Source: an uncultured Prevotella sp.
GTDB taxonomy: Bacteria; Bacteroidota; Bacteroidia; Bacteroidales; Bacteroidaceae
Length of the DNA: 64,000 nucleotides
Reading direction: 5' to 3'
Assembly (NCBI GenBank): GCA_945949515.1
Contig: CAMFEU010000003.1
Coordinates: forward strand, 2,398 to 66,397
Part shown: positions 13,208-62,472 of the stretch, piece by piece
How the letters are laid out: every line of letters begins with the position of its first letter
How positions within the stretch are numbered: position 1 is the first letter of the stretch
The notes under the pieces: model-generated
Told to the model about the DNA's origin: nothing
What the model saw: the letters and a program-made list of their open reading frames with translations, nothing else
The model's database searches: none
Position numbers and translations under genes: made by a program

Positions 13208-14308
13208 TCAAGGCTTTTTAGGTATGAAGTTGTCCATCACCTTATCTACCTCTTCCAGCATCTTCTTGCCACGCAGGTCGCGCTTCACGATGGTGCCATC
13301 AGGTGCAAAAAGGATGATCTGCGGTATGCCATTCACGCCATACAGTTTGGTGGCGGTTTCATTGCTGTCTATCAGTTGCTGCCACAATATTCCTTCTTTC
13401 TCCTTGGCAGGCTTCAGGTTCTCTAACTTGTCCCACACAAACACGCCCAGAATGGTCAGTCCTTTGTCGTGGTACTTGCGGTACAGCTGCAACAGATTAG
13501 GAATCTCTCTGCGGCACGGACCGCACCAGCTTGCCCACATATCCACGAGCACATAGTTTCCCTTGCCCACAAACTGACTTAACTTCAAAGCATTGCCCTG
13601 CTCGTCGCTGCCCTCGAAATCCACAAATTTGGAACCTTCGGCAGTACGTCCTTTGGCATCCAACATGGTGACAAACTCCTTGATGGGCACCATATTCTTG
13701 ATATTGGGTCCCATGATGGCTATCACTTCCTGTATTTCCTGCGGATTGCTACTTTCCAACAGCTCACCCGCCATCAGCGCATAGGCGCCAACGGCATCGT
13801 TGGTGTGCTTGTTGTACAGTTGGCGTGTTTTCTTCATCAACTGGGCATAGGCAACCTCACGCTGTTCAGGAGTCATACTTCTCATCTCCTTTCTCAACGA
13901 GTTCGTCTCTTTTTCATAGTCCTGTATCTCCTGATTCAGCGGTGAGCCCTTAGCCACTCCCATTTCCCTTGAACTCAACGAGAGTGTCAGCTCACAGTTT
14001 TCTGCCACAACACATCCTCTGTATCCTATTGTGTTTGTACGGATGTCCACCACGTAGAATTTGTCAATGCCACCTTCGTGTACAAAGGTCACCTTGCTGT
14101 CCTTCACCAATGCACTGTCCAGCACTGCCTGTGTTCCCACATCTTTCAGATACATGTACTCCCCGTCACACCCTCCGTCAAGCAAGGTCACATGCAAGGT
14201 CATCTTCTTGTCGTTGTTCGCTTGACCGCTCTTTGCCGCAAACTTTGCCACGGCGATGCCTGCCACAAGGATGGCAAAGGCAAAAATCACAGATCTTCTT
14301 ATCTTCAT
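13208..14308 (-). CDS. TlpA-family thiol:disulfide oxidoreductase (thioredoxin fold) with signal peptide
   Basis: WASWCGPCRREIP active site. Start trimmed to the ATG at 14308 (MKIRRSVIFAFAILVAG). Confidence 0.85.
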   Translation of the reverse strand: MKIRRSVIFAFAILVAGIAVAKFAAKSGQANNDKKMTLHVTLLDGGCDGEYMYLKDVGTQAVLDSALVKDSKVTFVHEGGIDKFYVVDIRTNTIGYRGCVVAENCELTLSLSSREMGVAKGSPLNQEIQDYEKETNSLRKEMRSMTPEQREVAYAQLMKKTRQLYNKHTNDAVGAYALMAGELLESSNPQEIQEVIAIMGPNIKNMVPIKEFVTMLDAKGRTAEGSKFVDFEGSDEQGNALKLSQFVGKGNYVLVDMWASWCGPCRREIPNLLQLYRKYHDKGLTILGVFVWDKLENLKPAKEKEGILWQQLIDSNETATKLYGVNGIPQIILFAPDGTIVKRDLRGKKMLEEVDKVMDNFIPKKP

Positions 14309-17804: not shown

Positions 17805-19349
17805 ATGCAGCACACACAGCCCAAAAAGTCTATCGTGCCAACCAACCTTATTTCCCAACACCTCCTTGCCTCTATGAGTAACTCATCCTCCATACAGCCT
17901 CAGCCGTCAGAACACAATAACGGCGGTTCATCGATAGGCAAGCGCCTATATTGGAGCGTGCTTTCGCTGTTTATCCTTTTTGCCGTGTTTTTCATTGTGT
18001 TTCAGCAGGCACGAGAAAAGGAATACAAGCAAGAGATCATCGACACCCAATTGCAGAGTTTCAACCAGGCACTGCACAACGAACTGCAACACGAGGGCAC
18101 CGTGAATGTGGGCACACTGCACGAAACCGCTTTTGAGACTTTTGTCAACAAACACCGCCCCCCATACTGTCGTGTCACCATCATCACCTTTGACGGAAAG
18201 GTGATCTATGACAATGAGCGCAAAGACTATACCAACATTGTGAACCACAGCAACCGCAAGGAGATAGCCGAGGCAAGACAACGAGGACATGGCACCGATA
18301 TCAGTAGAAGTAGCAGCACACTGAGGGGCTCCTTTTTCTACTCTGCCACCGCCTTCCCGCAAGAGGGCTACATCATACGCAGTGCCCTGCCCTACAACGA
18401 GAGTTTGGCAAAAAGTCTGCAAGCCGACCAGCACTTCATTTGGATTACACTGCTTGCCATTGCACTGCTTAGCATGGTGCTCTACCGCTTCACCCACCCT
18501 CTAAGCAAGAACATCTCGGCACTGAGAACCTTTGCCCGCAGAGCTGATGCCAACGAAAATCTGGAACCAGAAGAACTGGCAGCCTTTACCAACGATGAAC
18601 TGGGAGAGATTTCGGAACACATCATCAAACTGTACATGCAGTTGAGACATACCAAGGAGGAGCAAAACCGTCTGAAACGAGAACTGACACAAAACATTGC
18701 TCACGAACTGAAAACACCTGTGGCAGGCATACGGGGCTACTTGGAAACCATACTCACCCACCCCAACATTACCGATGCCATGCGACAGCAGTTCCTGGAG
18801 CGCAGTTATGCACAATCGCAAAGACTGAGCAGTCTGCTTGCCGACATCTCCACACTGAACCGCATGGACGATGCTCCAGAGATGCTGCCCTTTGAAGATG
18901 TGGATCTCAGTGCAATGGTGAAGCAGATTGCCACAGAAACTGCACTACAGTTTGAAAGTCATGGCATGACACTTGTGAACTTGCTGCCTGAGAATATCCA
19001 TCTCAAAGGCAACCCCTCCATGCTATACAGCATTTTCCGAAACCTCACCGACAATGCCTTGGCATACGCTGGCGATGGCACCACAGTGACCCTGTCTATG
19101 GAGCACCGCAACAGCAAGATGCACTTTACCTTCAGCGACAACGGTGTGGGCATCCCCACAGAGCACCAGAAGCGCATCTTTGAACGTTTCTACCGTGTGG
19201 ATAAAGGCAGAAGCAGAAAGATGGGAGGCACGGGTTTGGGACTTGCCATTGTGAAGAATGCCGTGCTACTCCACGGTGGAAGTATCAGCGTGCACAACAA
19301 CAGCAACGGCGGAGCCTGCTTCGATTTTTCACTACAAGCAGGAGTTTGA
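17805..19349 (+). CDS. sensor histidine kinase (cognate to the preceding regulator)
   Basis: two TM segments, H-box IAHELKTPVAGI, G-box GTGLGLAIVKN. Confidence 0.9.
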   Translation: MQHTQPKKSIVPTNLISQHLLASMSNSSSIQPQPSEHNNGGSSIGKRLYWSVLSLFILFAVFFIVFQQAREKEYKQEIIDTQLQSFNQALHNELQHEGTVNVGTLHETAFETFVNKHRPPYCRVTIITFDGKVIYDNERKDYTNIVNHSNRKEIAEARQRGHGTDISRSSSTLRGSFFYSATAFPQEGYIIRSALPYNESLAKSLQADQHFIWITLLAIALLSMVLYRFTHPLSKNISALRTFARRADANENLEPEELAAFTNDELGEISEHIIKLYMQLRHTKEEQNRLKRELTQNIAHELKTPVAGIRGYLETILTHPNITDAMRQQFLERSYAQSQRLSSLLADISTLNRMDDAPEMLPFEDVDLSAMVKQIATETALQFESHGMTLVNLLPENIHLKGNPSMLYSIFRNLTDNALAYAGDGTTVTLSMEHRNSKMHFTFSDNGVGIPTEHQKRIFERFYRVDKGRSRKMGGTGLGLAIVKNAVLLHGGSISVHNNSNGGACFDFSLQAGV

Positions 19350-22334: not shown

Positions 22335-25117
22335 AAATCCATTCCACATATTCCCCAAAAAACTTCACTCACATGCTGCTCCTTGCATGTATCTTCTTTT
22401 GGTGCATCCCTACATGCAGCAGGGCAGCCATCCGCGCACAGCAGATGGACAAATACACATCTGCCAACCCTCTCGTGGTGGTGATGGACTGGGAATGTCG
22501 CCCCTATGAATACCGTGACGATGATGGAAATCCCAGCGGATATGATGTGGATGTGGTGACCGAAGTGCTTGACAATCTGGACATCCCCTTCATCATAGTG
22601 ATGAAAGACTGGCAGAGTGCTCTGAAGATGTTTGGACAGAAAAAGGCAGATGTAATCATCTCGAAGAACAAGCTACCCTTCAACGATGTCTATTACGGAC
22701 AAACCATCCTTGCCAACTATCAAGAGGGAGTGGTGTATCGTGCAGACGAAGAGGTGCCCTTTGACTATGTGATGATGGGCAAAAACCACAAGGTGGGTTT
22801 CAAGAATGCAGACTATGTGAAAAACATGGAGGAATATCTGGACGCACATTTTAAGCATCCAGTGATTACCTCACCACAACATGGACTGTACCTGCTCAAA
22901 AACGGCGAGATAGATTACTATATCTGCGGTGCCAATACGATGAAATGGATCATCAGTGAACTGAAGATGACCAACGTGGAGATAAGCACCACAGGCATGC
23001 CTTCAAAACCACTCAAATTCACCACCCACAGCAAGGAACTATGCGACCTGCTTGACGACCAATATGCACGTCTGGATCAGGCTGGCAAGATCAAAAAGAT
23101 TTCCAACAAATGGTTCCATCCCGAAATCTATGAGCGCGACGCATCGCCCGTAGTTATCTATTTAGTGGCAGGTGCATTGGTGATATTACTCATTCACCTG
23201 GTGCTCAACCGACTGATAGGTCTGCGCATCAAAAAGCGTACAGAGACTATCAGAGACCAGAACAAACTGCTGGCAAAAGCCTTGGAACTTTCTAACAACT
23301 ATGTGGTGAGGCACAACTTTGCCACACACACCATACATAACATCTATGGCAACCTGATGCCCCCAGAAGGCATGAGGCACGATGAATATCTGAGCAAGGT
23401 TCATCCCGATGACCGAGGTTCCATGCTGCAATACTCCGCAGACATGAAAAGCGGAAAGATAGACAACAAGGAAAACTACTACAGGTATAACATGGGCACA
23501 CCAGAAGAGCCTGAATGGCACTCCCTGAAGGTGCAAAGTATCTGCGAGACAAACGCACACGGTCAGCTCACCGCCAGCATCTCTACCATCATAGACATCA
23601 CAGAAGAGCAGCAGGTAATAGAAGAGAACAAGATACTCACAGACAAATATGTGAACATCTTTGAACAGTCTATCGTGGGCCTCGCACTCTATGACAATAC
23701 AGGAAAACTGATATCGGTGAACGCTACCATGCGACGCATCTTCCATTTTGAGAACGATGAAGACCAGTTCTACTTCGACATCAACCTGTACGACCTGCAC
23801 TTCCTCAAGAACGATGTGAAGCGCGACGAACCTGTCAACATGCACTTCTGCACCCAGATACACATCCCCGAACGCAAGATGTTTGACTATCTGGAAATCA
23901 AGATGCGACCCATCAAAGACGAGACAGGACAACTGAAGTTTGTGATGCTTACCGCACGAAACATCACCGAAGACTACAAACTGTACAAAGAGAGTAAGGT
24001 AAACGAGAGACGACTGGCTTCTGTAAACAAGAAGGTGAAGCAGTATGAGGCAAACATGCGCTACCTGATGGAGGTGAACAACATGAGGGTGTGGCGCTCG
24101 TCACTATTAACCAAAGAGGTGGCTTACTTCAAGGACCTTTATCACTACGAATACAAGTTTACCTTTGAGGAGTTTATGAACAAACTGGTGGATGAGGTAA
24201 GTGGTGAAAAACTGCAGGAAATGATGAACCCGACCAATGAGACTAAGGCGCTGTATAAGTCGCTCATCTCTGCCAAAAATCTTTTTGTAAACGACAACAA
24301 AGTGCATTGGTACAATGTGAACAGCATTCCAGAATACGATGCCGAAGGCACTGTGATAGGCTTCTTTGGACTGATTCGTGATGTGACCACACTGATGGAG
24401 AAACAAACGGAACTGCGCAATGAGACCTATAGGGCGAACGAATCGGGCAAACAGAAGAGTGCCTTCCTCGCCAACATGACCCACGAGATACGCACTCCAC
24501 TCAATGCCATCGTGGGCTTCTGCGACTTGCTGCAAGCCATTGATGCTCCCGAAGAACGCAAGGAGTTTACGCGCATCATACGCAATAACTGCGACATGCT
24601 GCTGCAACTCATCAACGACATTCTCGACATCTCTACCATGGACAGCAACAATCAGGTGCTGCAACCTCACGACGTAGATTTCTCCATCGCCTTTAATGAT
24701 ATATGCACCACTCTTGCCACCCGCGTGGTTACCCCCGGAGTGCAATACGTGTGCGACAACCCTTATCCCACCTACCCCACTGTGATGGACAGCGGACGCA
24801 TACAGCAGGTTATCACCAACTTTGTGACCAATGCCGTGAAATACACCCAGCAGGGGCATATCAAGGTGGGCTATCGCGAAGAGGGCAACGGACTGTACAT
24901 CTACTGCGAAGACACAGGTACAGGTATTCCCAAAGACAAGTGCGAGAAGGTGTTTGACCGCTTTGTAAAGCTTAACGACTTTGTTCAGGGCACGGGCCTG
25001 GGTCTGAGCATCTGCAAAGCCATCATAGACCAGTGTCATGGAAAAATCGGAGTAAACTCTGAAGAGGGCAAGGGCTCTACTTTCTGGATTTGGATACCCT
25101 GCCCCAGAAAAGAATAA
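22331..25117 (+). CDS. paralogous sensor histidine kinase with periplasmic solute-binding-like domain (no receiver)
   Basis: same architecture as the preceding gene: CRPYEYRDDDGNPSGYDVDVV, H-box MTHEIRTPLNAIVGF, GTGLGLSICKA; ATGA overlap with the preceding gene. Confidence 0.85.
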   Translation: MKIHSTYSPKNFTHMLLLACIFFWCIPTCSRAAIRAQQMDKYTSANPLVVVMDWECRPYEYRDDDGNPSGYDVDVVTEVLDNLDIPFIIVMKDWQSALKMFGQKKADVIISKNKLPFNDVYYGQTILANYQEGVVYRADEEVPFDYVMMGKNHKVGFKNADYVKNMEEYLDAHFKHPVITSPQHGLYLLKNGEIDYYICGANTMKWIISELKMTNVEISTTGMPSKPLKFTTHSKELCDLLDDQYARLDQAGKIKKISNKWFHPEIYERDASPVVIYLVAGALVILLIHLVLNRLIGLRIKKRTETIRDQNKLLAKALELSNNYVVRHNFATHTIHNIYGNLMPPEGMRHDEYLSKVHPDDRGSMLQYSADMKSGKIDNKENYYRYNMGTPEEPEWHSLKVQSICETNAHGQLTASISTIIDITEEQQVIEENKILTDKYVNIFEQSIVGLALYDNTGKLISVNATMRRIFHFENDEDQFYFDINLYDLHFLKNDVKRDEPVNMHFCTQIHIPERKMFDYLEIKMRPIKDETGQLKFVMLTARNITEDYKLYKESKVNERRLASVNKKVKQYEANMRYLMEVNNMRVWRSSLLTKEVAYFKDLYHYEYKFTFEEFMNKLVDEVSGEKLQEMMNPTNETKALYKSLISAKNLFVNDNKVHWYNVNSIPEYDAEGTVIGFFGLIRDVTTLMEKQTELRNETYRANESGKQKSAFLANMTHEIRTPLNAIVGFCDLLQAIDAPEERKEFTRIIRNNCDMLLQLINDILDISTMDSNNQVLQPHDVDFSIAFNDICTTLATRVVTPGVQYVCDNPYPTYPTVMDSGRIQQVITNFVTNAVKYTQQGHIKVGYREEGNGLYIYCEDTGTGIPKDKCEKVFDRFVKLNDFVQGTGLGLSICKAIIDQCHGKIGVNSEEGKGSTFWIWIPCPRKE

Positions 25118-51981: not shown

Positions 51982-52049
51982 AAACAAGCAAAAACCAATG
52001 GGCACTGGCAAGAGGTGCGCCCATACATCATAAATACATCATACCGACT

Positions 52050-52928
52050 ATGGGATTCCTGAAATTTTTTTTCACCGGCAAGGTGGAAAGCGCCGAAGAA
52101 CAGGCACAGAAAGAGGAGGCAAAACGCTTTGACAAACTGAAATACGATGGTGTGCGTGCCACACGCAGCGGGCAACCCGATATCGCCATCCACTGCTTTG
52201 AAGAAGCACTGAAGATACACGAAGACATGGAGATTCGCGACTATCTGGCACGTACCCTGATAAGTGTAGATGCCCTGCCACAAGCCACAGAGCAACTGCA
52301 ACTGCTGGCACAAGCAGCCCCTGACAACACGGAGATACTGAAGCAATGGGCACGCGTGGCATATATGCAGGAAGAATACGCCATGATGGAAGAGGTATGC
52401 ACCAAGGCACTCTCCATTGATGACAAAGATGCCACCACCCTGTATCTGAAAGCACAGGCCGTGGCAGGTCAAGGCAACACCATCCCCGCTATCGCCCTGC
52501 TCACACAAGCCATCACCACCGACAACACCCTGGCATCGGCATACCTGATGAGGGCACGACTGCTACTGAGCATGGGCGACATACAAGGAGCTGCCGAAGA
52601 TGCCAACCACCTGACAGCCAACTATGGCGAGAGCGAAGAAACGCTGATGCTTCAGGCACAGGTGGCACACGCACAGGGAGATACCGCCAAGGCACTGCAA
52701 CAGTATGACAAGGTGATAGAACTGAATCCCTTCTCTGCAGAAGCCTACAAGGAAAGAGGACAGGTGAAATATGAGCAAGGCAATACCCAAGGCGCACAGG
52801 AAGACATGCAGAAGGTGCTGGAACTGAATCCCAACGCACTTGCCAATGTCAACGGTGAATACTCTGCCGAAGGTGTGGAGCACAAGGTGAAACAGGCATA
52901 CAGTTTTATGAATCCCCTGGGATTATAA
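52050..52928 (+). CDS. tetratricopeptide-repeat protein
   Basis: repeated A..Y...G....A TPR-like helices across 292 aa. Confidence 0.75.
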   Translation: MGFLKFFFTGKVESAEEQAQKEEAKRFDKLKYDGVRATRSGQPDIAIHCFEEALKIHEDMEIRDYLARTLISVDALPQATEQLQLLAQAAPDNTEILKQWARVAYMQEEYAMMEEVCTKALSIDDKDATTLYLKAQAVAGQGNTIPAIALLTQAITTDNTLASAYLMRARLLLSMGDIQGAAEDANHLTANYGESEETLMLQAQVAHAQGDTAKALQQYDKVIELNPFSAEAYKERGQVKYEQGNTQGAQEDMQKVLELNPNALANVNGEYSAEGVEHKVKQAYSFMNPLGL

Positions 52929-53015
52929 GCAAGGAAAAAGGCTCCATTGCTACTTTTCTGACTAAGAAAGAGCCAAAAAACTTTCATTTTTTTTGCTCGT
53001 TTGGCAGAAAAGTTA

Positions 53016-53023
53016 TACTTTTG
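53016..53023 (+). promoter_or_regulatory. -7 promoter box TActTTTG for the pheA leader transcript
   Basis: 52 nt upstream of the leader ATG at 53075. Confidence 0.55.
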
Positions 53024-53074
53024 CAAACATAACAGACAAAAACAAGACGAAATACAAAAAAAGGAGAAGTAATC

Positions 53075-53152
53075 ATGCAGAAGTTGACCGCGTACTTTTT
53101 TAGCTATTATTTTTACTTTGCAGGGCACTGTGAAGCGGGAAGTTGCGTGTAA
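53075..53152 (+). CDS. 25-codon Phe/Tyr-rich leader peptide MQKLTAYFFSYYFYFAGHCEAGSCV
   Basis: hand translation. 4 Phe and 4 Tyr fall within 9 consecutive codons (codons 7-15). AAGGAG lies 8 nt upstream of the ATG. The ORF sits between the promoter box and a terminator upstream of pheA. Confidence 0.75.
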   Translation: MQKLTAYFFSYYFYFAGHCEAGSCV

Positions 53153-53232
53153 ATTTCAACTTATGGTTTGATGAACATCTGAACAGAATAGTTTACAACA
53201 AATCCCGCTTCACCCACTGAGGCGGGATTTTT
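53130..53232 (+). promoter_or_regulatory. transcription attenuator: antiterminator/terminator alternative pairing
   Basis: GTGAAGCGGGA (53130-53140, inside the end of the leader ORF) is an exact complement of TCCCGCTTCAC (53203-53213). That second segment is also the 5' arm of an 11-bp terminator stem (53202-53212 with 53218-53228), which is followed by T5. Confidence 0.75.
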
Positions 53233-53281
53233 GATAAGAAAAAGGAAACAGAGACAACAAGCAAAAGAGAACAGAGACAAT

Positions 53282-54112
53282 ATGAAGAGAATAGCCATAC
53301 AGGGCGTACCCGGTTCATTTCACGACATAGCCTCACACCACTACTTTGAGGGCGAGCAAGTGCAACTTATCTGTTGCGCCACCTTTGAAAGCGTGTTCGA
53401 GAACATCAAGCGCGACCCCACAGTGATTGGCATGGTGGCAATAGAAAACACCATCGCTGGAAGCCTGTTGCACAACTATGAACTGCTGCGCGACTCTGAC
53501 ACCGCCGTGGTGGGCGAGCACAAACTACACATCTCCCACTGCATCTGCTGCCTGCCCGAAGACAACTGGGACACCGTGCAAGAGGTGCACTCACACCCCG
53601 TGGCACTGATGCAATGCCGCAACTTTCTGGCAAACCACCCCACCCTCAAGGCGGTGGAAAGCGAAGACACCGCAGGCTCTGCAGAATACATCGCCCGGCA
53701 CCAATGCAGGGGATGGTGCGCCATCTGCAGCGCAGAAGCAGCCGAGATGTACGGACTGAAGATACTGGAGAATCACATAGAAGACAACAAGCACAACTTT
53801 ACCCGCTTCCTTGTGGTGTGCAATCCCAAGAAAGCCGACTTTCTGAGACCGTTGGAAAAGACCAACAAGTCGAGCCTGGTGTTTGCACTTCCTCACGAAG
53901 AGGGTTCACTGTCGCAGGTGCTGAGCATCCTGTCGTTCTATAAAATCAACCTCACCAAGATACAGTCGCTCCCCATCATCGGACACGAATGGGAATACCT
54001 GTTCTACGTGGATGTGACCTATGATAGTCTGACACGATACCGCCAAAGCATTGATGCCATAGGTCCGCTGACCAGAGAGCTGAAGATTTTGGGAGAATAC
54101 ATACAGAAATAA
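53282..54112 (+). CDS. pheA: prephenate dehydratase (PDT + ACT domains)
   Basis: IAIQGVPGSFH, TRFLVV, ACT segment EGSLSQVLSILS; ATG at 53282. Confidence 0.9.
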   Translation: MKRIAIQGVPGSFHDIASHHYFEGEQVQLICCATFESVFENIKRDPTVIGMVAIENTIAGSLLHNYELLRDSDTAVVGEHKLHISHCICCLPEDNWDTVQEVHSHPVALMQCRNFLANHPTLKAVESEDTAGSAEYIARHQCRGWCAICSAEAAEMYGLKILENHIEDNKHNFTRFLVVCNPKKADFLRPLEKTNKSSLVFALPHEEGSLSQVLSILSFYKINLTKIQSLPIIGHEWEYLFYVDVTYDSLTRYRQSIDAIGPLTRELKILGEYIQK

Positions 54113-54127
54113 AAAACGCGCACAAAA

Positions 54128-55321
54128 ATGAACAAGATAGACGAAGTACAAAGCCATGCCATCAAGCCCGCAGACCGACTGGGGCTGGTGAGCGAATACT
54201 ACTTCAGCCGAAAACTGAAAGAGGTGGCACAGATGAATGCTGAAGGCAAAGACATCATCAGTTTGGCAATAGGCAGCCCCGACATGCCGCCCTCTAAACA
54301 AACCATCGACACCCTGTGCCAAGTGGCACAACAGCCCGAGGCTCACGGATACCAGCCCACCATGGGTATAGCCGAACTGCGACAGGCAATGGCACAGTTT
54401 TACAAAAAATGGTATGGGGTGGAAATAGATGCCCAAAGCGAAGTACAGCCCCTGATAGGTTCCAAGGAAGGCATACTGCACGTAACACTCGCCTTTGTCA
54501 ATCCAGGCGAAGAGGTGCTGGTGCCCAACCCCGGTTATCCCACCTACACCTCGCTCAGCAAGATACTGGGTGCCAAGGTGGTGAACTACAACCTGAAAGC
54601 CGAGAACGGGTGGCAACCCGACTTTGAAGAACTGGAACAGATGGACCTGAGCAGGGTGAAGCTGATGTGGACCAACTATCCCAACATGCCCACTGGAGGC
54701 AATGCCCAGCAAAATACCTACGAGCAACTGGTGGCATTTGCCAAAAAACACCATATCGTGGTGGTAAACGACAATCCCTACTCGTTTATCCTGAACGAGA
54801 AACCAATGTCACTGTTGCAGGTAGAGGGTGCCAAAGACTGTTGCATAGAGTTTAACTCCATGTCGAAAAGTCACAACATGCCCGGCTGGCGTGTGGGTAT
54901 GTGCATCTCCAATTCCACCTTCATCAGCTGGATACTGAAAATAAAGAGCAACATCGACAGCGGCACCTTCAGAGGCATACAAATGGCAGCGGCACAGGCA
55001 CTGCACAATGAAGAAGAGTGGCACAGACACGCCAACATAGAGACCTATGCTGCCCGCAGAAAATATGCCGAACAGATTATGGACGTGATGCAATGCCAGT
55101 ATGACAAGCAGCAGGTGGGCATGTTCCTATGGGGCAAGATACCCGACACCTATTCTCACTGTGAAGAGCTGACGGAGAAAGTGCTGCATCAGGCACGCGT
55201 GTTCATCACTCCCGGCTTCATCTTCGGCAGCAACGGCGAGCGCTACGTGCGCATATCGCTCTGCGCCAAGGAAGAACAACTGAAAAAGGCATTGGAAAGA
55301 ATCAAAGAAGTGTTTGGATGA
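54128..55321 (+). CDS. class I/II PLP-dependent aminotransferase
   Basis: NPGYPTY, NSMSKSHNMPGWRVG (PLP lysine). Confidence 0.88.
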   Translation: MNKIDEVQSHAIKPADRLGLVSEYYFSRKLKEVAQMNAEGKDIISLAIGSPDMPPSKQTIDTLCQVAQQPEAHGYQPTMGIAELRQAMAQFYKKWYGVEIDAQSEVQPLIGSKEGILHVTLAFVNPGEEVLVPNPGYPTYTSLSKILGAKVVNYNLKAENGWQPDFEELEQMDLSRVKLMWTNYPNMPTGGNAQQNTYEQLVAFAKKHHIVVVNDNPYSFILNEKPMSLLQVEGAKDCCIEFNSMSKSHNMPGWRVGMCISNSTFISWILKIKSNIDSGTFRGIQMAAAQALHNEEEWHRHANIETYAARRKYAEQIMDVMQCQYDKQQVGMFLWGKIPDTYSHCEELTEKVLHQARVFITPGFIFGSNGERYVRISLCAKEEQLKKALERIKEVFG

Positions 55322-55441: not shown

Positions 55442-56506
55442 ATGGAACTGGAATTAAAACCACTGAACTTACTGAAAGATGAAGAACGCCCACTGCTCAT
55501 CGCCGGACCATGCTCGGCAGAGACAGAGGAGCAAGTGATTTGTACCGCTAAAGACCTGGCAGCACGGGGATGCAAGATATTCCGTGCCGGCGTGTGGAAG
55601 CCACGCACCAAACCAGGAGGCTTTGAGGGCAACGGCGAAAAAGCCCTGCCATGGATGCAGGAGGTGAAAAAGGAAACGGGGATGCAGGTGGCCATCGAGG
55701 TGGCAACACCCGAACACGTGGAACTGGCTCTGAAATACGGCGTAGATATACTGTGGGTAGGAGCCCGCACCACCGCCAACCCCTTTGCCATGCAGGCTCT
55801 TGCCGACTCTCTGCAGGGAGTGGATGTACCCGTGCTGGTGAAGAACCCCGTGAACCCCGATCTGGAGTTGTGGATAGGAGCCATGGAGCGCATCAATCAG
55901 GCAGGCATCAAGCGCCTGGGAGCCATACACCGCGGATTCTCAAGCTATGACAAGAAAATCTATCGCAACCTGCCCATGTGGCAGATACCCATTGAACTGC
56001 ATCGCAGAATACCCGAACTGCCCATCTTCTGCGACCCCAGTCATATCGGTGGCCGCCGCGAACTGATAGCCCCACTGTGCCAGCAGGCAATGGATCTGGG
56101 CTTCGACGGACTGATAGTAGAAAGTCACTGCGACCCCGACAAGGCATGGAGCGATGCCAAGCAGCAAGTAACTCCAGATGTGCTGGAGTATATCCTTTCA
56201 CTGTTGGTGGTGCGCAGCGAAACCTGCACCACCGAGGGCATCACCACCCTGCGCAAGCAGATAGACGAACTGGACAACCAGCTGATGGAACTGATGGCAA
56301 AGCGCATGCGTGTGTGCCGCGAGATAGGACAGTACAAGAAAGAACACAATATGACCGTGTTGCAAACCGCACGCTACAGCGAGATACTGGAGAAGCGCGG
56401 TGCACAGGGCGCACTGTGTGGCATGGATTCACAGTTTGTAACCAAGGTGTTTGAGCAGATACACGAAGAGTCTGTAAGACAACAAATAGAGATTATCAAC
56501 AAATGA
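55442..56506 (+). CDS. bifunctional 3-deoxy-7-phosphoheptulonate synthase / chorismate mutase
   Basis: N-terminal KDO8P-synthase-like DAHPS domain (LIAGPCSAE, CDPSH). C-terminal AroQ-type CM domain (LRKQIDELDNQLMELMAKRMRV). Confidence 0.88.
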   Translation: MELELKPLNLLKDEERPLLIAGPCSAETEEQVICTAKDLAARGCKIFRAGVWKPRTKPGGFEGNGEKALPWMQEVKKETGMQVAIEVATPEHVELALKYGVDILWVGARTTANPFAMQALADSLQGVDVPVLVKNPVNPDLELWIGAMERINQAGIKRLGAIHRGFSSYDKKIYRNLPMWQIPIELHRRIPELPIFCDPSHIGGRRELIAPLCQQAMDLGFDGLIVESHCDPDKAWSDAKQQVTPDVLEYILSLLVVRSETCTTEGITTLRKQIDELDNQLMELMAKRMRVCREIGQYKKEHNMTVLQTARYSEILEKRGAQGALCGMDSQFVTKVFEQIHEESVRQQIEIINK

Positions 56507-56524: not shown

Positions 56525-56642
56525 GAAATTAAAAAATTAAAGAATTAAAAAATTAAATTACAAGAAAACCAAACTTCGAAAGGGACTTTCGAAGAATTAA
56601 AGAATTAAAGAATTAAAGAATTAAAGGATTAAATAATTAAAG
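56525..56642 (+). repeat. left array of AATTAAAG octamers (reverse complement of the right array) with an embedded perfect hairpin
   Basis: aattaaag x4 plus variants at 56595-56642. cttcgaaag-gga-ctttcgaag hairpin at 56574-56594. 56528-56548 is the exact reverse complement of 57312-57332. Confidence 0.85.
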
Positions 56643-56653
56643 TGAGCTGTGAT

Positions 56654-57052
56654 ATGGGTAAGGACAATTTAGTGTCAAATCTGAGTTTGGATTTTGCAGT
56701 ACGCATTGTAAATCTTTACAAATTCCTATGCACACAAAAAAAGGAGCACGTATTGTCAAATCAGGTATTGCGCAGTGGTACCAGTATTGGAGCTAATCTG
56801 TCTGAAAGCGAGATGTGCCAGAGTACCGCCGACTTTATCGCCAAACTACATATCTCCCTAAAAGAGGCCAATGAAACTAAATACTGGCTTACCTTACTAC
56901 AAAAAACCAACTATATCACAAAAGACCAATTCGACTCCATAAATCACGACCTCAGATTGATAATCGGGCTGCTGGTGAATGGATTGAAAAAGATAAAGGA
57001 AAAGGAAAAGCAAAAGGAAAAGCAAAGAACAGCAGAGAACCAAGCACCTTAA
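56654..57052 (+). CDS. four-helix-bundle protein (23S rRNA intervening-sequence protein / Avd-like family)
   Basis: about 130 aa. FAVRIVNLYKFL..., VLSNQVLRSGTSIGANLSES, FIAKLHISLKEANETKYWLTLL are characteristic of this family. K/E-rich tail. ATG at 56654. Confidence 0.85.
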   Translation: MGKDNLVSNLSLDFAVRIVNLYKFLCTQKKEHVLSNQVLRSGTSIGANLSESEMCQSTADFIAKLHISLKEANETKYWLTLLQKTNYITKDQFDSINHDLRLIIGLLVNGLKKIKEKEKQKEKQRTAENQAP

Positions 57053-57384
57053 TCCTCTATTCCTTTAATCCTTTAATCCTTTAATTTTTTAATTTTTTGT
57101 CCTTTAACCCTTTAATTCTTTAATCCTTTAACCCTTTAATCCCTTAATCCTTTAACCCTTTAATCCCTTAATCCTTTAACCCTTTAATCCTTTAGCCCTT
57201 TAACCCTTTAATTCTTTAATCCTTTAATTATTTACTCCTTTAACCCTTTAATTCTTTAATCCTTTAATGTTTTAATCCTTTAATTATTTACTCCTTTAGC
57301 CCTTTAATCCTTTAATTCTTTAATTTTTTAATCCTTTCTTTACCCCTTTAATTCTTTAATTATTTAATTATTTAATTTTAAAAT
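57047..57384 (+). repeat. tandem array of about 42 imperfect 8-bp units (consensus CCTTTAAT; variants TCTTTAAT, CCTTTAAC, CCCTTAAT, TATTTACT)
   Basis: read directly. The period is 8, so a TAA appears in every frame on both strands. The array starts at the stop codon of the four-helix-bundle gene and ends 9 nt before the tyrA ATG. Confidence 0.95.
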
Positions 57385-57393
57385 TTGAATGCA

Positions 57394-58188
57394 ATGAAAA
57401 TTTTGATAATGGGTGCAGGAAAGATGGGCAGTTTTTTCTTAGACCTGCTCAGTTTTGACCACGAGACGGCAGTGTATGAAAAAGACCCGAAGCGCATGCG
57501 CTTCACATACAACTGCCAGCGACTGACAACGCTGGAAGAGATCAAGAAATTCCAGCCAGAACTGGTGATCAATGCCGTGACGGTGAAATACACCATCCCT
57601 GCCTTCAAGGAGGTGATGCCCTATATACCCGACGATTGCATCATCAGCGACATCTCGTCGGTCAAAACACATCTCAAGGAGTTTTACGAAGAGAGCGGGC
57701 ATCCGTATGTGAGCACTCACCCCATGTTCGGCCCCACCTTTGCCAACTTGCAGCAACTCTCGGAAGAGAATGCCATCATCATCAGCGAGGGCGATTACAT
57801 GGGGCGCATCTTCTTCAAAGACCTGTATCATCGACTGGGACTGAACATCTACGAATACACCTTTGAAGAGCACGACCGCACCGTGGCATACTCTTTGAGC
57901 ATTCCCTTTGTATCCACATTTGTGTTTGCTGCAGTGATGAAGCATCAAGATGCCCCGGGAACCACCTTCAAGCGTCATCTGCGCATCGCCAAAGGCGTGC
58001 TCAATGAAGACGACTTCCTGTTGCAAGAAATACTGTTCAATCCCTATACGAGCAGTCAGGTGGATCAGATACGTAATGAACTGAGCGAACTGCTGGACAT
58101 CATCGACCGGAAAGACGGCAAGGCGATGAAACACTACCTCACCAAAATACGTAACAATGTGCGCCAAGACATTGAACAACTCAAGTAA
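57394..58188 (+). CDS. tyrA: prephenate dehydrogenase
   Basis: Rossmann ILIMGAGKMG, SVKTH..., HPMFGP; ATG at 57394. Confidence 0.88.
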   Translation: MKILIMGAGKMGSFFLDLLSFDHETAVYEKDPKRMRFTYNCQRLTTLEEIKKFQPELVINAVTVKYTIPAFKEVMPYIPDDCIISDISSVKTHLKEFYEESGHPYVSTHPMFGPTFANLQQLSEENAIIISEGDYMGRIFFKDLYHRLGLNIYEYTFEEHDRTVAYSLSIPFVSTFVFAAVMKHQDAPGTTFKRHLRIAKGVLNEDDFLLQEILFNPYTSSQVDQIRNELSELLDIIDRKDGKAMKHYLTKIRNNVRQDIEQLK

Positions 58189-62395: not shown

Positions 62396-62472
62396 GGTCT
62401 CGTAGCTTAGCTGAATAGAGCGTCAGATTCCGGTTCTGAAGGTCGTGGGTTTGAATCCCACCGAGATCACCA
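62396..62472 (+). tRNA. tRNA-Arg (anticodon CCG), CCA encoded
   Basis: hand-folded cloverleaf. Acceptor GGTCTCG/CGAGATC, D stem GCTT/GAGC, anticodon stem TCAGA/TCTGA with loop TTCCGGT, T stem GTGGG/CCCAC, discriminator A, CCA. Confidence 0.85.

Follow-up and report, generated by a model that had tools for sequence, protein, structure and literature searches.

A putative phenylalanine/tyrosine leader-peptide attenuator upstream of pheA in Prevotella and its relatives

Introduction

Does the short open reading frame (ORF) that precedes the prephenate dehydratase gene pheA in Prevotella, and which carries a dense run of phenylalanine (Phe) and tyrosine (Tyr) codons, allow a translating ribosome to determine whether that gene is transcribed? 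The question arises from a stretch of 64,000 nucleotides of DNA from an uncultured Prevotella sp. (GenBank assembly GCA_945949515.1, contig CAMFEU010000003.1, positions 2,398 to 66,397 of the forward strand), which we refer to as the window and in whose numbering coordinates are given below. An earlier note, written from the letters of this DNA, had described positions 53016 to 53232 as a leader-peptide attenuator of pheA. We hypothesise that the element is a classical ribosome-mediated transcription attenuator of the operon pheA-aminotransferase-DAHP synthase/chorismate mutase(-tyrA) and, on the comparative evidence set out here, we would put the probability of this at roughly 85%.

The attenuators of E. 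coli pheA (leader pheL) and of the trp, his, thr, leu and ilv genes of Proteobacteria are built from a short ORF rich in codons for the end product, four RNA segments that can pair as 1:2, 2:3 and 3:4, a terminator just upstream of the first biosynthetic gene, and a stop codon placed so that segment 2 is masked by a ribosome that terminates there. Leaders that sense more than one amino acid are known too, namely those of thr and ilv. The Prevotella element resembles these systems in each of the features named. Gene regulation in Bacteroidota, which include dominant gut genera, is much less understood than that of Proteobacteria and Firmicutes, and ribosome-mediated attenuation had been held in the earlier note to be uncommon in what is described for the phylum. 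This needs qualification, since leader-peptide attenuation has already been predicted there for trp genes, in the form of Bacteroid-trp (RF01692), a presumed tryptophan (Trp) peptide leader found upstream of trpB and trpE in Bacteroidetes (Weinberg et al., 2010; PMC2864571). According to the same study no such leader had been reported in Bacteroidetes earlier, and its hairpin is loosely conserved and was presented without a consensus diagram.

Anatomy of the pheA leader

Reading of the sequence together with a script check bore out the features and coordinates that had been assigned to the element, namely the promoter box, the AAGGAG, the ORF, the 11-nt complement, the T-run and the pheA ATG; one component that had been missed, a hairpin between segments 1 and 2, is added here. 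All of these elements lie on the forward strand. The -7 promoter box TACTTTTG (53016-53023; consensus TAnnTTTG) has a -33-like TTTG (52992-52995) 20 nt upstream of it, and together these presumably correspond to the -33/-7 layout of Bacteroides promoters. An AAGGAG resembling a Shine-Dalgarno (SD) sequence (53061-53066), which proves to be a non-conserved part of the element, stands 8 nt before the ATG (53075) of the leader ORF. The ORF itself occupies 53075-53152 and comprises 25 codons plus TAA, encoding MQKLTAYFFSYYFYFAGHCEAGSCV, and its codons 7-15 (53093-53119) form the regulatory run, with four Tyr and four Phe in nine codons.

Four segments can be recognised from the end of this run onwards. 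Segment 1 (CUUUGCAG, 53116-53123) overlaps the last Tyr and Phe codons and is the 5′ arm of the 1:2 hairpin, while segment 2 (CUGUGAAGCGGGA, 53128-53140) can pair either with segment 1, through 53128-53135, or with segment 3, through 53130-53140. The latter 11 nt, GTGAAGCGGGA, are the exact reverse complement of 53203-53213. Segment 3 (53200-53213) combines this partner of segment 2 with the 5′ arm of the terminator (53200-53212), and segment 4 (53218-53232) consists of the terminator 3′ arm (53218-53230) with a U-run at 53228-53232. The terminator hairpin that had been proposed is present, although its stem is 13 bp long and not 11 bp, including one G-U pair and enclosing a CCCAC loop, and 50 nt separate its U-run from the pheA ATG (53282). 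From the end of segment 2 it is 10 nt to the leader stop (53150-53152), and this stop lies in the loop of a further small hairpin, AAGUUG/CAACUU (53140-53145/53157-53162), which spans 53140-53162.

The leader ORF, the cognate codon run, the terminator, the antiterminator, the 1:2 hairpin and the stop-codon geometry that define this structural class are therefore all found at the locus. The exact 11-mer pairing of GTGAAGCGGGA occurs at only these two places in the window and the whole layout is seen again in all of the 78 related species genomes, so the arrangement exceeds chance.

Copies of GTGAAGCGGGA with one mismatch also occur in the window, on the reverse strand at 13278-13288 and 18483-18493 and on the forward strand at 23816-23826. 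When these are included the matches number five, against 0.84 expected from shuffles.

Proposed mechanism

We propose that transcription would begin at the Bacteroidota-type promoter (-7 box at 53016) and enter the 25-codon leader ORF. If Phe-tRNA and Tyr-tRNA were plentiful, the ribosome would reach the stop at 53150 and cover segment 2 (53128-53140); segments 3 and 4 would then pair, the 13-bp terminator with its U-run would form, and RNA polymerase would stop before pheA. If charged Phe- or Tyr-tRNA were scarce, the ribosome would stall in codons 7-15 and mask segment 1 (53116-53123), leaving segment 2 to pair with segment 3 as it emerged, which would remove the 5′ arm of the terminator and let transcription continue into pheA. 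Should the leader not be translated at all, the 1:2 hairpin would sequester segment 2 and termination would be the default. Such a scheme implies that the leader would be translated, that a premature 3′ end would be formed and that read-through would respond to Phe and Tyr.

Conservation of the leader in Prevotellaceae

The prephenate dehydratase encoded in the window is 82-100% identical to Prevotella proteins. We sampled Prevotellaceae with one genome per species, which gave 80 loci at 79-98% prephenate dehydratase identity, 78 of them with enough upstream DNA to be judged; the leader alignment (A2) contains 79 leaders. An equivalent of the leader ORF is found in every one of the 78 judgeable loci, with at least six, and usually eight, Phe or Tyr within nine residues, and the consensus of the encoded peptide is M..A[SY]F[YF].[FY]YFYFA..CEAGSCV. 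Of the features whose conservation the earlier note had left to be checked, the leader ORF and its Phe/Tyr run are thus kept upstream of pheA orthologues in 78 of 78 Prevotellaceae, the complementary segments are kept in nearly all, and, as described below, further lineages have them as well.

The way in which the codons vary is informative about what is being selected. Over the 79 leaders the nine codon positions before a conserved GCA are Phe or Tyr in 613 of 711 cases, and run codons 2-7 vary synonymously (TTT/TTC and TAT/TAC), codon 6 being TAT in 39 leaders and TAC in 38. Synonymous variation of this kind points to selection on the encoded amino acid. The last TAC TTT of the run, which falls in segment 1, is invariant (79/79). 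In the upstream part of the run selection is thus on the encoded residues, as tRNA sensing requires, whereas from the last Tyr-Phe onwards it is on the nucleotides.

The tail of the ORF follows the latter pattern. In most Prevotellaceae the conserved GUGAAGCGGGA spells Cys-Glu-Ala-Gly; the reading becomes Asn-Val-Lys-Gln in locus L015 and Val-Lys-Ala-Gly in Tannerellaceae, and in three loci (L012, L035 and L040) the TGA stop of the leader lies inside it; the nucleotides GUGAAGNNGGA are accordingly kept whether they are read C-E-A-G, V-K-A-G or N-V-K-Q, or contain a stop codon. Moreover, the four-fold-degenerate GCG and GGA codons of the tail show almost no variation except where there is compensation in segment 3. 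Frame changes with kept nucleotides, together with the near-invariance of GCG and GGA, indicate that the conserved tail is an RNA signal and not a peptide. A functional CEAGSCV peptide was considered and rejected on these grounds, as the nucleotides are retained through frame shifts.

The promoter is likewise conserved: 74 of 78 related loci have a TAnnTTTG box among the 110 nt that precede the leader ATG, as against 4% of random 110-nt stretches. The distance from the -7 box to the leader ATG is 51 nt in the window and usually 20-39 nt in relatives. The extra stretch in the window (53024-53074) contains the AAGGAG, which had been described as a strong SD-like element. This description does not hold for the element as a whole, as an SD-like core (GGAG, AGGA or GAGG at -20 to -4) is present in 5 of 79 leaders and the conserved context is an A-rich tract, the usual context for translation initiation in Bacteroidota. 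We therefore regard the AAGGAG as an accident of the window genome and its nearest relative, and reject it as a conserved functional Shine-Dalgarno sequence.

Covariation of the alternative pairings

Pairs were counted for the two alternative states over the 79 aligned leaders. The 1:2 hairpin (53116-53123/53128-53135) is 99.8% paired and is the best-covarying helix, its closing pair being AU in 44 leaders, GC in 28, UA in three, CG in one and UG in one. The 3:4 terminator (53200-53212/53218-53230) is 90% paired, with double changes at 10 of its 13 pairs, and the 2:3 antiterminator (53130-53140/53203-53213) is 92% paired with few double changes, as segment 2 hardly varies among Prevotellaceae. 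When the 3′ partners were slid by one to three columns, the share of paired positions dropped in both tests to 35-51%, as against about 90% in register. Both the 1:2 hairpin and the terminator are also predicted by RNAalifold, to which the proposed structure was not supplied.

Where segment 2 does change, its partners can be seen to follow. Three-way compensations among segments 2, 3 and 4 are found in five loci (L015, L019, L029, L035 and L040): L035 and L040 have GUGAAGUGG as segment 2, CCCCACUUCAC as segment 3 and GUGAGUGGGG as segment 4; in L015 GUGAAGCAGG pairs with CCUGCUUCAC; and in L019 and L029 GAGCGGGA pairs with UCCCGCUC. Nearly all Prevotellaceae loci have a terminator of the form TCCCGCUUCA, loop, GGCGGGA and U-run, with energies of -15 to -29 kcal/mol, and a segment of 9-12 nt complementary to the terminator 5′ arm some 20 nt before the leader stop. 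In relatives, segment 2 starts 15-23 nt before the stop or has the stop inside it. On this evidence the 1:2 hairpin and the terminator covary, and the antiterminator does so more weakly.

The small stop-codon hairpin (53140-53145/53157-53162) is 84% paired, with double changes at four of its six pairs. It occurs in most Prevotellaceae, is missing from the frame-shifted variants, and sits within the loop of the antiterminator. Loop closure, pausing and ribosome release are candidate roles for it.

Energetics and ribosome geometry

The computed energies are -8.7 kcal/mol for 1:2, -17.1 kcal/mol for 2:3 and -19.5 kcal/mol for 3:4. The stop-codon hairpin alone contributes -2.7 kcal/mol, and with it the 2:3 state moves from -17.1 to -19.1 kcal/mol, while the full terminated state (1:2, small hairpin and 3:4) comes to -30.9 kcal/mol. 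We then considered the RNA as it would stand before segment 4 is made, exposed to position 53216, with 28 nt masked around the ribosomal A-site. In this folding the probability of the 2:3 helix is at least 0.94 with the A-site at any of codons 1-16 and is 0 at codons 17-26, which include the stop. The calculation suggests that a ribosome held in the Phe/Tyr run permits the antiterminator, and that a ribosome at the end of the ORF forbids it.

These results are in keeping with the geometry proposed originally, in which a ribosome at the stop codon covers segment 2 and one stalled at the Phe/Tyr codons leaves segment 2 free. The opposition of a 2:3 antiterminator and a 3:4 terminator, taken over in the earlier note from enterobacterial attenuators, is likewise supported by conservation, covariation and ribosome-masked folding alike.

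Leaders beyond Prevotellaceae

To the extent that the element could be followed into other families, it keeps its architecture and loses much of its sequence. Among relatives of remote prephenate dehydratase seeds, named Dysgonomonadaceae and Tannerellaceae were examined. Dysgonomonadaceae (Fermentimonas, Proteiniphilum and Petrimonas; 54% identity) have the same operon, preceded by leaders encoding MNNSIFAYSFGFYFYFSR, MIGSVFAFGFWFYFYFSR and MIHTNFAYSFWFYFYFSR. Their leader stop lies in or beside GGUGAAGGCAGGAUUUUAU, 13 nt of which can be read to pair with AUAAAGUCCUGUC, and the latter is the 5′ side of a terminator different from that of Prevotellaceae. Tannerellaceae (Parabacteroides and Tannerella) have leaders encoding MNRFSFTYFFYYFYFSRVKAGICM and MNQSFFTYFYFYFYFSKVKAGICM, again with a terminator. 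In a further locus, L086, the gene order is prephenate dehydratase, prephenate dehydrogenase and DAHP synthase/chorismate mutase. In all three groups a Phe/Tyr leader and a terminator are present, the sequences of segments 3 and 4 differ, and segment 2 matches; the Phe/Tyr run is the only part of the leader peptide that is common outside Prevotellaceae. The upstream neighbour of the leader-pheA unit varies between families, which indicates that the leader travels with pheA, and the element is always found directly upstream of pheA regardless of the genes further upstream.

A metagenome scan from ten distant seeds provided 80 loci (L087-L166) on contigs without lineage assignment, with dehydratases 41-70% identical to that of the window, and about 72 of these loci had at least 400 nt upstream. 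At least seven aromatic codons in nine were found in 59 of the roughly 72, and in two in the reverse-complement control. Between leader and pheA, a terminator of -10 kcal/mol or lower is present in 60 of 65 leader-bearing metagenomic loci, and 34 of the 60 have a complement to the terminator 5′ arm that exceeds 95% of shuffles in length.

A Trp codon stands within the Phe/Tyr run of two Dysgonomonadaceae leaders (L082, 2336-2392, and L083, 2326-2382, in the numbering of those loci; FGFWFYFYF and SFWFYFYF), and some of the metagenomic leaders also include Trp codons. As the operon contains DAHP synthase, the presence of Trp codons is a sensible one, and where this enzyme is included a single leader may sense all three aromatic amino acids. 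L086 carries, at 152-350 of that locus, a longer Phe/Tyr leader, MQTNSFYYALSFYGFYQYFTDNAPVSLCR, and two terminator-like hairpins in a row stand between this leader and pheA.

Weighing the attenuator reading

The reading of the element as an attenuator is strongly supported by the comparison of leaders described above, and a number of points have to be set against it. Equilibrium folding of the complete leader, with the mask placed at each codon, lets the terminator win everywhere except with the A-site at codon 12. The folding comparison suggested in the earlier note supports the proposal in the masked form that precedes segment 4, and is uninformative at equilibrium. Since equilibrium favours the terminator almost regardless of where the ribosome stands, the decision must be kinetic and co-transcriptional, and enterobacterial attenuators, including those of E. 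coli, likewise rely on ordering of this kind. In addition, before segment 4 is made the 2:3 helix thermodynamically beats the 1:2 hairpin even when there is no ribosome, so that termination could be the default for an untranslated leader only if the 1:2 hairpin formed earlier. The 2:3 helix also shows few compensatory changes, and we know of no demonstration of transcription-translation coupling in Bacteroidota.

Three other explanations were weighed against this evidence. One possibility is that translation of the leader governs pheA chiefly by way of Rho-dependent polarity or of mRNA stability, rather than by the intrinsic terminator. The literature describes Rho termination dependent on upstream ORFs (uORFs) as common in other bacteria, but nearly all lineages have a strong, conserved and covarying hairpin with a U-run, whose 5′ arm is specifically complementary to a leader segment, and this would be needless if Rho alone were at work; we consider this explanation very unlikely. 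Still less likely, in our estimation, is that the leader RNA is controlled by a protein or a ligand, in the manner of TRAP, a T-box or a riboswitch, and that the ORF is incidental. Alternative terminator and antiterminator structures are typical of such systems too, and translation of the leader is something that we infer. It would be difficult, however, to account in this way for an intact ORF in 78 of 78 loci whose Phe and Tyr codons vary synonymously, or for a Phe/Tyr-rich ORF that is kept in lineages with quite different RNA sequences, and no Rfam 15 family scored above threshold.

Finally, the small ORF could encode a functional hydrophobic or aromatic micro-protein, with the hairpin as no more than the terminator of this ORF and pheA served by read-through or by a promoter of its own, and we regard this as the least likely explanation of all. 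The ORF does have its own promoter and terminator, and its C-terminal CEAGSCV is highly conserved as a peptide within Prevotellaceae. Yet, as described above, the nucleotides behind this C-terminus are read in other frames or hold a stop codon in several lineages, the GCG and GGA codons are almost invariant save where segment 3 compensates, outside Prevotellaceae only the Phe/Tyr run is shared, and the position directly before pheA is constant whatever lies further upstream.

Relation to known leaders

In spite of the common architecture, the Prevotella element differs from the attenuators of E. coli pheA and its Proteobacteria counterparts in several ways. It has no similarity to them in sequence or Rfam model beyond a generic terminator; its run mixes Phe with Tyr, and in some families Trp; genes for DAHP synthase/chorismate mutase and for prephenate dehydrogenase belong to the Bacteroidota operon as well; and the element has a Bacteroidota promoter, an A-rich initiation region without an SD sequence and the extra stop-codon hairpin. 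A permissive Rfam search (cmscan) of 52000-54000 returned only Trp_leader (RF00513), with 19.1 bits where the gathering score is 41 and over the terminator alone, and a gathering-threshold Rfam 15 scan of the whole window gave no leader family match. A full-text literature search found no pheA leader described in Bacteroidota and turned up no transcript 3′-end, Ribo-seq or physiological data on the element; a study from 2004 by Vitreschak and colleagues, which lay outside the reach of that search, reportedly noted candidate attenuators "in some cases" in Bacteroidetes/Chlorobi.

Bacteroid-trp is akin to the pheA leader as a predicted Bacteroidetes peptide leader with conserved regulatory codons, a hairpin and amino-acid biosynthesis genes downstream. 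It differs in having Trp (UGG) codons and trp genes, and the pheA leader is not matched by it even in the permissive Rfam search. Stav et al. (2019; PMC6429828, Fig. 6b) present candidate regulatory uORFs upstream of shikimate-pathway genes that are, like the present leader, short, Phe/Tyr-rich and associated with aromatic pathway genes; these come from alpha proteobacterium HIMB5 and four other genomes, and the passages of that paper which deal with them give no sign of Bacteroidota or of homology. The transcriptome paper on B. thetaiotaomicron describes some long 5′ untranslated regions (UTRs) with small ORFs reminiscent of leader peptides, and its supplements make no mention of prephenate, pheA or attenuators.

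The putative attenuator is widely conserved and unlisted in Rfam, its mechanism is an ordinary one, and the attenuation paradigm gains nothing mechanistically new from it. We incline, with some reserve, to the view that it stands for a family, not yet catalogued, of leader-peptide attenuators with mixed Phe/Tyr(/Trp) runs that would control the aromatic operon across Bacteroidales and possibly in the wider Bacteroidota. Its main value lies in annotation, as it is easily recognised and provides a concrete rule for annotating a leader peptide gene that is missing, together with a cis-regulatory RNA. For physiology it yields a testable prediction of Phe/Tyr sensing in Prevotella, Parabacteroides and relatives, and it could be used as an amino-acid-responsive part in the engineering of gut Bacteroidota. 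If the proposed mechanism is correct, ribosomes in a largely SD-less phylum must load nascent leader RNA fast enough to stay coupled with RNA polymerase, and the leader would be a natural reporter of transcription-translation coupling and of SD-independent initiation in Bacteroidota.

The downstream operon and other features of the window

On the forward strand downstream of the leader lie pheA, the first structural gene, for prephenate dehydratase (53282-54112; PF00800, E 2.4e-55), a class I/II aminotransferase gene (54128-55321; PF00155, E 8.8e-63), a gene for DAHP synthase fused to chorismate mutase (55442-56506; PF00793 and PF01817) and a tyrA-like gene for prephenate dehydrogenase (57394-58188; PF02153). 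The same order is found in other families. It had been suggested that a mixed run of Phe and Tyr codons suits an operon that makes both amino acids, and the gene order, here and in other families, agrees with this. In the window, however, tyrA is split off by some 0.9 kb of inserted DNA that holds a gene and repeat arrays, whereas in other families it follows directly after DAHP synthase/chorismate mutase, and in most Prevotellaceae loci tyrA-homologous DNA begins about 0.9 kb nearer to pheA than in the window.

The inserted region (56526-57390), between the DAHP synthase/chorismate mutase gene and tyrA, contains a gene (56642-57052) for a 23S rRNA intervening-sequence protein (PF05635), with repeat arrays to its left (56526-56557 and 56592-56642) and right (57049-57376). 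The left arrays are short and have an 8-nt unit, AAATTAAA and AAGAATTA, and the right array consists of 41.6 copies of TTAATCCT, a unit that by eye is close to the left units in reverse complement. Of the 86 related loci examined, only L071, at another position, and L001, where it is partial, have a homologue, so the insertion is a sporadic one that may be mobile. One possible consequence in the window genome is that tyrA is no longer coupled to the attenuator.

A scan of the window for consensus promoters and terminators, not designed for Bacteroidota promoters, listed neither the leader promoter nor its terminator. The simple terminator scan probably missed the 13-bp terminator because the maximally extended stem takes up three of the five T's. 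When other 5′-UTR terminators across the window were scanned, none resembling a leader-peptide attenuator was seen. The sole Rfam match above the gathering threshold in the window is a tRNA gene at 62396-62469. Lastly, between a TPR-protein gene that ends at 52928 and the promoter of the pheA leader inspection by eye shows an inverted repeat, GGCTC...GAGCC, with A-runs on either side (52938-52985); on the minus strand this would be a hairpin with T's after it.

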